This document shows, in pieces, positions 1 through 6,755 of a stretch of DNA of 64,000 bases (positions within the stretch are counted from its first letter, which is position 1; each line of letters begins with the position of its first letter). The position numbers were made by a program, and so were the translations under genes. This DNA comes from Eledone cirrhosa (lineage: Eukaryota): positions 8,804,001 to 8,868,000 of the forward strand of contig OZ024762.1 of assembly GCA_964016885.1 (NCBI GenBank), read 5' to 3'. Under the pieces are notes generated by a model, which ran no database searches, had not been told where the DNA came from, and worked only from the letters and a program-made list of their open reading frames with translations.

Positions 1-958
1 GCTGCTACTTCTCCGAATTGAGAAATCACTGCTCAGATACAGTGAGTTCCTCCGAAGGGTCTTTGGGGTAACGTTACTCGATAAAATGCGTAGCTCGGAG
101 ATCAGAGAACCACTCCAAGTAGAGCTGCTACTTCTCCGAATCGAGAGATCATAGCTCCGATACTTTGGACATGTGCTTAGAATGTCTCAGGAAAGAAACG
201 CTGGACAGATTTGTAACTCGGAGAGCAGAGAGTCACTCCAGGTAGAACTGTTACTTCTCCGAATTGAGGGATCACAGCTCAGATACTGTGAGTTACTCCA
301 CAGGGTCTTTGGGATAACGTTACCCGATAAAATGCGTAGCTCGGAGATCAGAGAACCACTTCAGGTAGAGCTGCTACTTCCCCAAATTGAGGGATCATAG
401 CTCTGATACTATGGTTTCCTCCGATAGGTCTTTGAGGTAAAGTTACTCGATAGAGTGAGTAGCTCGGAGATCAGAGAGTCACTCTAGGTAGAGCTGCAAC
501 TTCTTCGAATTGAGGGATCACAGCTCCGATACTATGGTCATGTGGTTAGAATGTCTCAGGAAAGAACCGCTGGAGAGCCCCTCCAGGTAGAGCTACTACT
601 TCTCCGAATTGAGGGATCACAGCTCCGATACTATGGTCATGTGGTTAGAATGTCTCAGGAAAGAACCGCTGGAGAGCCACTCCAGGTAGAGCTACTACTT
701 CTCCGAATTGAGGGATCACAGCTTTGATATTATGGATATGTGGTTAGAATGTTTCAGGAAAGAATCACTGGACAAATTTTACTGGCGAAACCAACAGGTA
801 GGAGACCCAGGGTTAGACCAGGAGCAAGATGGTTGGATAACATCCATGAGCTTGGCTGATCTTGCTTGAGAGATCCAGCCAGATCAGTTGGAGACGGTTG
901 CTTCTGACAGGACCCACTGGAAGGAGTGGTTGAGGACTCTGCATCCCCACGACCCTCA
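1..958 (+). mobile_element. RTE-clade (Expander/Rex3-like) LINE 3' end with internal tandem duplications
   Basis: Broken frames give LLLLRIERSQLRYYGHVVRMSQER..GQILLAKPTGRRPR, typical of the RTE ORF C-terminus. The block is repeated about 8 times with stops and ends in an A/(GAA)n tail. Confidence 0.85.
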
Positions 959-1128
959 AAAAAAAAAAAAAAGAAGAAGAAGAAGAAGAAGAAGAAGAAG
1001 AAGAAGAAGAAGAAGAAGAAGAAAGCAAAGAAGAAGAAGAAGAAGAAGAAGAAGAAGAAGAAGAAGAAGAAGAAGAAGAAGAAGAAGAAGAAGAAGGCAA
1101 AGAAGAAGGAGTCAAAGAAGAAGAAAAA
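959..1128 (+). repeat. poly(A) then (GAA)n tail of the RTE element
   Basis: Direct reading. Confidence 0.95.
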
Positions 1129-1220
1129 GATCTTTATATCTTATACTATAACGTTCTCTTAATTTCCTACGAATATATTTATTCTCATTCTCTTAATCTT
1201 GTATTCGTTTATTATGATTA

Positions 1221-1410
1221 GGCGGTGGATTGGCAGTATCGGTAGAGTGTTGTCCGCCATGCTTTGACGCATAGAGTTATGGCCCTTGCCATTCTGGGTT
1301 CAAATCTCGCCGAGGTTAACTTTGCCTTTCATCCTTATGGGGTCGATAAAATAAAGTACCAGTAATACACTGGGTAATTGCTGGCCTTGTGCCAAAAGTA
1401 GAAACAATTA
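1221..1410 (+). mobile_element. tRNA-derived SINE family A (Nin/Deu-like core), full length
   Basis: A-box-like TGGCAGTATCGG, B box GGTTCAAATC, core GCCTTTCATCC..GGGGTCGATAAAATAAAGTACCAG, tail GGCCTTGTGCCAAAAGTAGAAACAATTA. More than 12 copies in the window. Confidence 0.85.
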
Positions 1411-1779
1411 TAATTATTAGTATTAGTATTCCTATTATGTATTATTCTGTTCGTTTATTACGTATTCTCCTAAGGTAATTCTGTATTCTCTTCAACGTGT
1501 GTAAAGGTTTTTTTTGTGTCGGCTCAGTTCCGTTTATCTATAATTAGACAGTCTACACGACTTGAGGCTGTATGTAACTTTAGCAAACATCGTTCGTTTA
1601 TTTTTGTGTTTTTTGTTGTTGTTTTTTTTTTGTTATTTCTCGATGTTGGTGGTGTGGGGTGAATGCGGTGGTGGTGTTGTCTTTGTTTTTTTTTTATTTA
1701 TTTTAAATTTTTGTTGTTGTTGTTGTTGCGTTGCAGATGATCGACGTTGAGCGAGTATATATATATATAATAATAAATT

Positions 1780-1915
1780 TGAAGACTAAAATCCAAAGAG
1801 GGCTCAATAATGATAAATATATATCAAATATATAAGAACGGTAGAGCAAATATTTATTAAAATAACAGATTAAAGTTTAAGCAAAGAATCGGTGCTTTCA
1901 CCCTGACCAAAAGTT
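1780..1915 (-). mobile_element. Short Penelope-like element fragment, same family as 15786-15965, with hammerhead 3' half
   Basis: Near-identical to 15786-15910. Minus strand reads GAAA-GCA..TGC-TT-AAACTTT, then AATAAA. Confidence 0.55.
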
Positions 1916-1970
1916 AAACAAGACTGGAATTGAACCATCAGCACAGTTGAGGTATGTCATACATCAATTT

Positions 1971-2042
1971 ATATATTTTATCTGATGAGGACGTACTGAA
2001 AAAACAGCACAGTACCTCCGAAATATATATAATAAAATATAT
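1971..2042 (+). ncRNA. Type I hammerhead ribozyme (family H1)
   Basis: Stem I ATATATTTTAT/ATAAAATATAT (11 bp), CTGATGA 1982-1988, stem II GG..GTACTG/CAGTAC..CC, GAAA 2020-2023, palindromic TATATA, TA. Predicted cleavage after 2031. Confidence 0.8.
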
Positions 2043-2082
2043 TTTGATTACGTTGAATGTCTATATTTATTAATATTTTGAA

Positions 2083-2132
<50 letters not shown>

Positions 2133-2137
<5 letters not shown>

Positions 2138-2233
2138 CAAAATATTAATAAATGAAAAATATTCTCATAACCAAAATATATATTTTATTATACATATTTC
2201 AAAGGTACAATGGTGTTTAAGTACGTTTTCATC

Positions 2234-2236
<3 letters not shown>
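2133..2236 (-). mobile_element. Degenerate inverted copy of the H1 hammerhead element
   Basis: Reverse complement TGATGAAAACGTAC..GTACCTTTGAAATATGTATAATAAAATATA mirrors 1982-2085 across a (TA)n. Confidence 0.6.
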
Positions 2237-2264
<28 letters not shown>

Positions 2265-2266
2265 TA

Positions 2267-2477
2267 TAACGAAAGAAGTGTGGTAAGGAACCAGGTGGAC
2301 CATAACACACCAGAGTACTCGATAATTAGAGTAGTAGAGTGGATAGTAGGAAAAGAGTCAGGACCCCGACGGCTGAGTTCCGGCCGTTTCGACAGCTAGA
2401 TCTGAACTAACCCAGTAGTGTTAGTTGAGATCTAGCTGTCGAAATGGCCGGAGCCCAGCCGTCGGGGTCCTGACTCT

Positions 2478-2480
<3 letters not shown>
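2267..2480 (-). mobile_element. Fold-back Penelope-like element family F, copy 1
   Basis: Palindrome 2351-2480 carrying GAAA-CGGC..GCCG-TC-GGGGTC on both strands, flanked by (TA)n. Confidence 0.75.
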
Positions 2481-2556
<76 letters not shown>

Positions 2557-2559
<3 letters not shown>

Positions 2560-2746
2560 CGAAGGAAATGTGGTAAGGAACCAGGTGGACCATAACGCAC
2601 CAAAGTTCTCAATACTTGGGGTAGTAGAGTGGGTAATAGGAACCAGTAAGACCCCGACGGCTGAGCTCAAGCCGTTTCGACAGCTAATTCTGGACTGAAT
2701 TAGCCGTCGAAACGGCTTGAGCTCAGCCGTCGGGGTCTTACTGGTT

Positions 2747-2751
<5 letters not shown>
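2557..2751 (-). mobile_element. Family F copy 2
   Basis: Palindrome 2636-2751 with loop TGGACT, flanked by (TA)n. Confidence 0.75.
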
Positions 2752-2799
<48 letters not shown>

Positions 2800-2803
<4 letters not shown>

Positions 2804-3003
2804 CAAAGCAGGCGTGGTAAGATACCAGGTGGACCATAACGCAGCAGAGTACTCGATACTTAGGGTAGTAGAGTGGGTAATAGGCAAAGAGTCAGGACCC
2901 CCGACAGCTGAGCTCCGGCCGTTTTGACAGCTAGATCCGAACTTGGATCTAGCTGTCGAAAAGGCCGGAGCTCAGCCGTCGGGGGACCTGACTCCTTTGC
3001 TAT
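2800..3003 (-). mobile_element. Family F copy 3
   Basis: Palindrome about 2880-3003 centred on GATCCGAACTTGGATC, flanked by (TA)n. Confidence 0.75.
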
Positions 3004-3074
3004 ATATATATTTATATATATACAGAGAGAGAGAGAGAGAGAGAGATAGGATGGAAGTGGGAAAGATATATAGA

Positions 3075-3233
3075 GGAAGAATCGATTCTAGTACTCGACT
3101 GGTACTTTTTTTTATCGAACTCGAATGGATGAAAGGCAAAGTTGACCTCGGCGGGATTTGAACTCAGAGAGCGAAAACGAATATTATAAAGCATTCTATC
3201 CGACGTTCTAACGACTCTGCCAATTCGCCACCA
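3075..3233 (-). mobile_element. SINE family A, diverged copy
   Basis: GGATGAAAGGCAAAGTTGACCTCGGCGGGATTTGAACTC, the reverse core and B box. Confidence 0.75.
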
Positions 3234-3303
3234 TTTTGGACAGACTTTAACTCAACTTTAACACCATCCAATATACCCCTTCCGTTTTTTTTTCTTTCTT
3301 TAA

Positions 3304-3525
3304 CCCTTTACCATTTACATTACTCTATATTTACTATTGTATTTTCACGGTAAACACTTTATGTCACATAATTATCTCACATAATATCGAACCTACGAGA
3401 TTTGATTTCTATATTATCTATTTTGAGAACAATACCTTAACACAATGGTCAATTATGGCTGGTTTGAACAGAAAGAGGTAAGAGAATTCTGGCCAGATAT
3501 GGCCGCTTTAAATTCTAAAATGTTA
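3304..3525. mobile_element. piggyBac-type MITE fragment
   Basis: TTAA|CCCTTTA start; homologous to 42338-42548. Confidence 0.65.
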
Positions 3526-3904
3526 AGACAATCGACGTTAATTTGAGGGTAATCTTGCTGCTATTTCTAGCAGGTCGAACGACTACGTTGGCAGTAATAT
3601 ATATAAAAAAACTAACAAGCAAAAAAATTGTTGATGGCCATCTGTCACTCTCTTGCTTTGACTGAAACATAACCCTGATAAAATATCCAATTATCGTGCT
3701 GCTTATCTGCACGTGATCGATATCGATCTAAAAGTACAACATAGCATTTAGCATTGGTGGTCGATATATTTTTTTTTGTTTTTGTTTTTTGCGGGGGTTA
3801 GGATAGGGGCTCAGTTGTCTATTCTCTTTTGTTTTTAGATTTTTTTTGCTTTGTTTTTTGTTTTGTTGTTGTTGTAAATTAGTGTTTGTGCGCGTGCGCG
3901 TCTT

Positions 3905-6357: not shown

Positions 6358-6392
6358 TTTGATCTTATATATTATATATATATATATATATA

Positions 6393-6671
6393 TACAATAT
6401 TAAATAAATGGAAACTATATTTATAAAACCATATCTATTTCATTATATATATTTCAGGGATAACATATTAACAATATGCTATGCCTTCCTCAGACAAAAT
6501 ACAATATAAACAGTTTTATAGATAAATGTCGAATCTATTTATCTATAAAACTGTTTATATTGTATTTTGTCTGAGGAAGGCATAGCATATTGTTAATATG
6601 TTATCCCTGAAATATATATAATGAAATAGATATGGTTTTATAAATATAGTTTCCATTTATTTAATATTGTA
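6393..6671. repeat. Perfect 135-bp-arm palindrome (6393-6527 / 6537-6671) of a hammerhead-bearing Penelope-like element
   Basis: Arms read as exact reverse complements around the 9-nt spacer GTCGAATCT. Confidence 0.9.
6563..6628 (+). ncRNA. Type I hammerhead ribozyme (family H2); mirror copy at 6436-6501 on the minus strand
   Basis: Stem I TATTTTGT/ATGAAATA (8 bp, 2 GU), CTGAGGA, stem II AGG.ATAGCATATT/AATATGTTAT..CCT, GAAA, TATATA, TA. Confidence 0.75.
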
Positions 6672-6755
6672 AATATACTCCAAATATTTGTTGAGTGCTT
6701 TTATATCAGTTATAAATATTTACTAGTTGTAACACAACAATTTAAATATAACTTT

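Follow-up and report, generated by a model that had tools for sequence, protein, structure and literature searches.

The window, that is the whole stretch of 64,000 nucleotides of Eledone cirrhosa DNA that was analysed, contains six palindromes, all of which were found where a preliminary description of this DNA had placed them (Table 1). They are short insertions of a 3543-bp Penelope-like element (PLE) of the Hydra type. Read in the sense direction, each arm consists of GAAA, a stem, UC and GGGGU, and older copies differ from this by single changes. The preliminary description recognized the palindromic arms but overlooked the rest of the unit, namely about 79 extra bases on one side only of each copy and (TA)n on both sides. 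In the first copy, whose tailed arm is in sense orientation on the minus strand, the apparent 'loop' between the arms is templated loop II sequence of the parent. The arms correspond to the 3' half of a hammerhead ribozyme; in the example given in Table 1, GUC occupies 2729-2731, the predicted cut follows 2731 and the first catalytic box is lacking. As described before, CUGANGA is absent from all six window copies, and neither a first catalytic box nor the 5' strand of stem II is present in any of the six short palindromes. Genome-wide (3.0 Gb), one 27-nt arm pattern has 24,328 exact matches compared to none for the reversed control, so that the palindrome family is not due to chance. The window and 200 kb beside it, 264 kb in total, hold 33 copies or fragments.

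Table 1. Members of the palindromic element family in the window. Signed positions are counted from +1, the A of TTAGTCC at unit base 3405; sites and arms are defined in the text.
Feature	Position	Strand	Palindrome	Arms and remarks
Short insertion, older subfamily	2269..2481	-	2350-2481	Tail 2269-2349; tailed arm to ~-11 (2419), tail-less arm from ~-3 (2420); template, long older copies
Short insertion, young subfamily	2559..2751	-	2636-2751	Tail present; tailed arm ends at +1 (2696), tail-less arm from +7 (2697)
Example 3' half-hammerhead in a tail-less arm	2706..2735	+		End of stem II 3' strand, GAAA, stem III, GUC, stem I 3' strand
Short insertion, older subfamily	2803..3002	-	~2881-3002	Tail present; tailed arm ends at +1 (2943)
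Short insertion	15044..15258	-	15121-15258	Tail present; (TA)n filler at the junction; tail-less arm from -2 (15196)
Short insertion, middle subfamily	44918..45112	-	44995-45112	Tail present; tailed arm ends at +1 (45055)
Tail-end fragment of the element (seventh piece)	47476..47505	-		Site A end only, adjoining TA
Short insertion, older subfamily (sixth copy)	54654..54791	-	54677-54791	Shortened tail fused to an unrelated hairpin (54570-54654); arms meet at +6/+7

Other hammerhead-like motifs and palindromes are also present in the window. Two motifs, at 1982-2035 (+) and around 47700-47750 (-), belong to a different family; their first box is canonical, stem II is long and TA repeats come after GAAA. 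Four small motifs at 22810 (+), 25230 (+), 16570 (-) and 16379 (-) are of the minimal PLE type; their cores are canonical, and stem II is preceded by a bulged base. At 54400-54510 there is a match to the 3' UTR of a further PLE family, and the GIY-YIG loci of that family (L124, L128, L136) carry a minimal hammerhead-like motif. The hairpin joined to the shortened tail of the sixth copy is a separate structure of about 35 bp, for which no origin was found. Further palindromes, with arms of up to about 140 bp and several of them beside TA repeats, lie at 6387-6677 (adjoining a run of N), 15449-15563, 33076-33146, 43639-43746 and 12102-12178. Head-to-head insertion of other PLE families may have produced them.

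The parent element was reached through two loci in which the same sequence continues upstream of a non-inverted arm. A pattern of such upstream-continuing arms has 2579 matches, many of them forming opposite-strand pairs 0.1-6 kb apart, and the non-inverted copies expected by the preliminary description are found among them. One locus is a tandem of the 3543-bp unit with an intact ORF of 719 amino acids. Its reverse transcriptase (RT) part contains RWR (37), DKT (117), FDI, MGA and YRDD, and its linker CxCx5C, with CNC..C at 572. The endonuclease part is of the GIY-YIG type (VIY at 591, YIG at 606) with one Cys between the two motifs, without CCHH, and with CNLC at 670 (CxxC) and CKH at 698 (CxH). 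Among 8000 scored sequences, 2027 homologues of the ORF were identified, of which the top rows are 39-54% identical and the best carries PF01541; Pfam and PDB searches with the 719-aa ORF itself gave no matches. A single ORF combining RT with a GIY-YIG-type endonuclease at the C-terminus, together with tandem and inverted 5'-truncated copies, a pLTR and a one-sided tail, characterizes the element as an EN+ PLE. The order of RT and GIY-YIG, the RWK-like motif (here RWR), DKT, the CxCx5C linker, the lack of CCHH, the CxxC and CxH motifs, insertion into (TA)n, the tandem and inverted 5'-truncated copies, the one-sided tail and a hammerhead in the pLTR agree with the Hydra clade, the definition of which includes (TA)n targeting (PMC8557442). 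The element thus fits this clade by its motifs, the assignment being based on these and not on a tree. Contigs from three runs aligned to the 3' end of the element cover tail and arm, a coverage that cannot reveal the start site.

A search for the GIY-YIG family gave 10,597 candidate matches genome-wide, of which 150 were scored. The 50 loci examined are other PLE families, none with the palindrome element as its 3' end, and several further PLE families have long open reading frames. The U3-A8 core described below is retained in L291-L302, which are long copies from the older subfamily, and two of them (L294, L293) contain pieces of a diverged ORF, 32-82% identical to the young protein depending on the segment. 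Related families (L085:1-123, L082:3328-3410, L031:2604-2700, L080:7947-7976) have the middle of the pLTR in common and other ends, and the first of these is itself palindromic with a different axis.

The pLTR of the parent contains a complete predicted type I hammerhead in the order stem I, UUGA(G/U/C)AA, stem II (its loop about 31 nt long), GAAA, stem III and GUC; an intact example of 119 nt lies on the minus strand at L146:1451-1569. The palindrome arm is the 3' half of this predicted ribozyme, as the preliminary description had read it. The first box differs from the CUGANGA that had been expected: upstream of the arm, CUGANGA has 22 matches genome-wide, and the 10 inspected are junction or flank sequence without an intact ribozyme. 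In 37 distinct intact copies, the core pair is U3-A8 in 31 (UUGA(G/U/C)AA), C3/A8 in five and U3/G8 in one, while position 7 is free; U3-A8 is a described variant of PLE hammerheads (PMC4209133). The earlier prediction for stem II was nearly right, since CGGCUA pairs with UAGCCG in the non-inverted copies, and both sides of this stem change between the young and old subfamilies (18 of 20 rows). The minimum-energy fold is a three-way junction in four of six variants, with weak z-scores of -3.0 to +0.1. The Rfam hammerhead models gave no matches in the window, and none at E-values up to 10 on an intact copy. Long copies with a mismatched core (C3/A8 or G3/A8) recur (L236, L169, L277, L141), which means that a perfect hammerhead core may not be required for spread. 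An HDV-like or other ribozyme setting the 5' end was considered by eye and abandoned once the upstream template had been found.

At their 3' ends, the insertions are fixed at two sites. Of 18 long loci chosen for being opposite-strand pairs, 17 have one arm that extends to unit base 3544, here called site A, and a second that extends to 3465, called site B, with the two joined 5' to 5'. The short palindromes end at the same two sites, and the 79 nt of the tail equal their spacing. Each site lies at a UAU in the RNA, matching the (TA)n target, and of 131 palindromes, 116 have TAT after the short arm. For a PLE of the green anole, the protein has been reported to cut and extend both strands, with two internal starts whose spacing equals the tail (PMC11167929).

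At the 5' side, the short insertions stop at a narrow site. Among 107 arms of the young group (from 100 listed of 24,328 matches), 84 end between -5 and +6, 23 read through and none ends in between; the anchor had to reach +6, so that earlier stops are uncounted, and one row scored as short is a long arm with a mismatch. The catalytic core lies at -43 to -37 and the 5' strand of stem II at -33 to -28. Both are upstream of the stop and are therefore never reached by short copies, which end within loop II about 28-33 nt downstream of the stem II 5' strand. The hairpin just 5' of GAAA, which had been taken for stem II and for the axis, is instead the inversion junction, at which the stem II 3' strand is present twice. 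In the older subfamily, arms stop at the same +1 and also near -11, and the arm ends of long insertions (n=46) are scattered from 175 to 3457. The sequence contexts of +1 (TTAGTC, TCAGTC or TTAGTT) resemble the initiator consensus. This position is likely the capped transcription start, judging from the sequence features assembled here, and in Penelope the promoter lies within the pLTR (PMC2377424).

The bases added at the arm ends are consistent with such a start. Where both arms end at +1, C/G stands between them in 47 of 57 places at which the template has A/T (p=4e-7; 100 of 259 matches listed); this set is from one young subfamily, of which all long copies examined have T at -1. Arms abutting (TA)n reach +1 in 67 of 83 places, and the base after +1 is C in 23 of these arms, G in four, T in four and A in nine, while 27 have nothing (C versus G, p=1.6e-4; both counts from 100 of 214 matches listed). 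As a control, the first inserted base at long junctions is C at only 1 of 16 ends compared to 23 of 40 (Fisher p=7e-4). The extra C occurs on both arms in nine of the 100 matches listed and in one further locus (L198). Within long arms, no retained cap C was present in the loci examined. Reverse transcriptases can copy the cap G, which leaves an extra G at full-length 5' ends; no paper on this copying was found in the literature searched. The untemplated C at +1 is as would be expected from copying the cap, and a C of this type would indicate a sense rather than an antisense template. Against a run-off at a capped end speak the many arms with no or a templated base after +1 and the spread of the ends over about 11 nt.

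The way in which the two arms are joined can be judged from their subfamily types and junctions. In 91 of 95 palindromes, the two arms are of the same subfamily type, compared to a mean of 25 and a maximum of 40 after shuffling; 131 palindromes were found, and 36 of rare types were left out. Nearly all centres are different, with 59 distinct ones in 67 palindromes and 17 in 18 within one young subfamily. Concordant arms together with differing centres imply that each junction arises newly, from a single RNA or source, although gene conversion could account for part of the concordance. The preliminary description had thus been right that the arms share subfamily variants within a copy, that the centres differ and that each insertion was inverted independently. 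In many centres, the arms are separated by no more than 1 nt. Solo arms occur both with and without the tail, and in 6 of the 18 long loci the tail-less arm is longer, extending further 5', than the tailed one, which could also stem from later deletion of the tailed arm. Three arm pairs (L056, L067, L151) are nearly non-overlapping, and in two palindromes (L027, L224) the subfamilies are mixed between the arms at several sites. In 8 of 23 long junctions, both breakpoints lie within 60 nt of each other (1.0 expected), two of them being identical.

These observations are best explained by two separate primings. Most probably, the PLE protein nicks the target, two cDNAs are primed, both run off at the likely capped 5' end of the RNA and they are then end-joined head to head. 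In detail, the protein would nick both strands of a (TA)n repeat, and two internal sites in the RNA, separated by 79 nt, would each serve to prime one cDNA. Both cDNAs would extend to the likely capped RNA 5' end, which lies in loop II of the predicted hammerhead, and host end-joining would likely fuse them head to head. The two arms would mostly share a single RNA molecule or source locus as their template. The first catalytic box would then be missing through the position of the transcription start and not through the ribozyme fold. RNA cut by the hammerhead would likely yield a rarer class of arms that stop at the cut site, and long and tandem insertions would come from templates whose end is not +1. 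The components that can be read from the DNA are the parent, sites A and B, the stop at +1, the untemplated C, the variable junctions and the predicted intact ribozyme upstream.

An alternative is that a single cDNA ends near +1 and folds back through pairing of a few bases at its 3' end, priming the second arm itself; this arm, copied from the first, would join the target at site B. The common centres would permit a snap-back of 3 bp, a related process has been proposed for PLEs (PMC3846280), and the near-symmetric long junctions (8 of 23) would follow from fold-back as well as from one shared RNA end. Solo tail-less arms, the C that they carry, centres without any loop and the non-overlapping pairs would be left unexplained. 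As a general mechanism it is unlikely, and it may account for a minority of the palindromes.

Two primings could also be combined with a stop in loop II that stems from structural stalling or from breakage of the RNA instead of from a capped start. The fold prediction places a weak apical hairpin of loop II over +1, which makes a stall of the reverse transcriptase possible, and the spread of the ends over about 11 nt as well as the second cluster near -11 in the older subfamily would suit this explanation. It is nevertheless quite improbable because the excess of C is specific to +1, 23 of 107 arms pass +1 cleanly with none stopping between it and the core, and the site itself is initiator-like.

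The preliminary description had proposed that a single cDNA folds back on the hammerhead stem II and copies itself, so that the ribozyme fold sets the axis and the breakpoint. The covariation of stem II and the matching arms within copies are compatible with this proposal, and palindrome formation by self-priming has been suggested for PLEs (PMC3846280). Self-priming on stem II would, however, retain its 5' strand and the loop of about 31 nt, both of which are absent from the short copies, which stop short of them. Junctions of 0 or 1 nt between two arms ending at +1 cannot be fold-back loops, fold-back copying cannot reproduce a terminal untemplated C on both arms, and a breakpoint set by the fold is contradicted further by tail-less arms that are solo or longer than the tailed ones. 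The arms of L027 and L224 also differ at several subfamily sites. Taken together, the proposal is very improbable. There is next to no chance of a DNA transposon (MITE) or of a single ancestral palindrome that was copied whole, the case named beforehand as refuting independent inversions, since despite the long inverted repeats and an arm mismatch shared with the query by many of the best 30 DNA matches (selected by likeness to the query and not typical of pattern-selected copies), the arms are the 3' end of an element encoding RT and GIY-YIG, the unit is asymmetric with its one-sided tail and 59 of 67 centres differ.

A second stop peak coincides with the predicted ribozyme cut. Arms stopping beside (TA)n, no more than 12 nt beyond a fixed anchor, were counted. 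In the young subfamilies, 22 of 48 such arms stop exactly at the predicted cut (100 of 462 matches listed), 18 at the four positions 3' of it and 6 within the eight positions beyond these, and a further 2 extend to the cut if one substitution is allowed. After dropping two tandem duplicates and moving three cases of possible CpG decay, the peak comprises 17 of 26 arms (p=7e-11). In the older subfamily, 6 of 55 arms stop exactly at the cut, or at most 10 if substitutions are allowed (p=0.05), 27-28 stop at the positions 3' of it and 17-19 over the next 8, without a clear peak. The peak in the young subfamilies, as seen in genomic DNA, suggests, short of proof, in vivo cutting by the U3-A8 ribozyme. 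Template jumping from the cap onto the cleaved 3' end, end to end, was also considered; it was present in none of the loci examined and in one match genome-wide, and was not supported. A transfer relying on homology across the 41 nt between +1 and the cut would not be visible in the sequence. In four tandem loci, the long arms read through the +1 of the upstream unit, so their templates must be read-through, circular or jumped RNAs.

A wider reading is put forward tentatively, as a possibility rather than an expectation: the hammerhead may sort PLE RNAs into two fates. A start inside the ribozyme would leave a dead half on the capped RNA, and cleavage in the next, complete copy would remove its 3' priming sites. 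Capped RNA would then seed only palindromic stubs resembling strong-stop products, and unit RNAs that are cut and circularised (or read-through) would seed the long and tandem insertions. If this were true, fossil 5' RACE products would be present in the genome in tens of thousands, and the positions of the cap and of the in vivo cut could be read from them to the base.

The element class, the tail, the inverted copies and the U3-A8 core are already known from other PLEs. The element differs from the Hydra clade of PMC8557442 in its tail of 79 nt compared to 30-40, in a hammerhead with a U3-A8 core, long stem III and 31-nt loop II, and in the 84 of 107 arms that are stubs ending at one site, whereas high 5' truncation with no fixed stop is given in the accessible text of that study. 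Poseidon of the green anole, studied in vitro, is alike in that both strands are cut and extended, RT starts at two internal sites and the target is AT-rich, and the length of its products follows the template's 5' end (PMC11167929). In contrast, the accessible part of that study reports no homology between start and target, no reads at hammerhead-cut ends and no head-to-head stubs ending at the start site, while here both sites have a UAU matching (TA)n and a genomic stop peak is observed. The PLE hammerheads of PMC4209133, with U3-A8 in Schistosoma Cercyon, are likewise of type I and located in the pLTR, with U3-A8 covariation, a palindromic loop III and opposite-strand pairs 100-700 bp apart, and circular monomers were proposed as tandem templates. 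The metazoan forms described there are minimal and dimeric; stem III has 5-6 bp here, which makes a monomer hammerhead fold possible. In vivo evidence for PLE hammerheads is stated to be absent in the accessible text of that work. Penelope of Adineta vaga (PMC3846280) also has head-to-head inverted pLTRs, palindromes at the junctions, a tail on one arm and an Inr-like motif in the pLTR. For these, self-priming on an antisense template was proposed, whereas the junctions described here speak for a sense RNA, likely capped, on which priming occurs twice.

L1 twin priming uses two primers on opposite target strands, and retroviral strong-stop DNA is a short cDNA running off the cap. The pieces resulting from twin priming do not overlap, in contrast to the mostly overlapping arms here, and no strand transfer is shown for this element. 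No description of a dominant stub class at a start site inside a ribozyme, with marks of cap and cut at base level, was found in the literature searched, nor any paper on this element family or on start-site palindromes; that literature covered few subscription journals, and Repbase, Dfam or the supplements of PMC8557442 and PMC13282606 may list the family. Recently active Penelope families in one octopus are reported in PMC13282606, the accessible main text of which mentions neither Hydra nor hairpins, and the accessible parts of 10.64898/2026.07.22.740005 and PMC3088659 add nothing further on start-site stubs. The formation of PLE inverted repeats and in vivo hammerhead cutting are described as open across the accessible texts of PMC3846280, PMC8557442, PMC4209133 and PMC11167929. 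A young, intact, high-copy PLE family is informative here because its junction statistics separate self-priming from two primings, and its junctions mark the likely transcription start to the base in addition to a stop peak at the predicted cut. For genome annotation, the stubs resemble MITEs or SINEs, yet they are PLE products, and they add many perfect hairpins of 50-60 bp to the genome.

An unusual arrangement was observed at one long tandem insertion (L172-L173; G000:C1, ~91489170-91492740). At its junction, about 65 head-to-tail repeats of a 55-bp ORF segment (unit bases ~1616-1673) precede the inverted arm, and they reflect either repeated slipping on the template or an assembly artefact.
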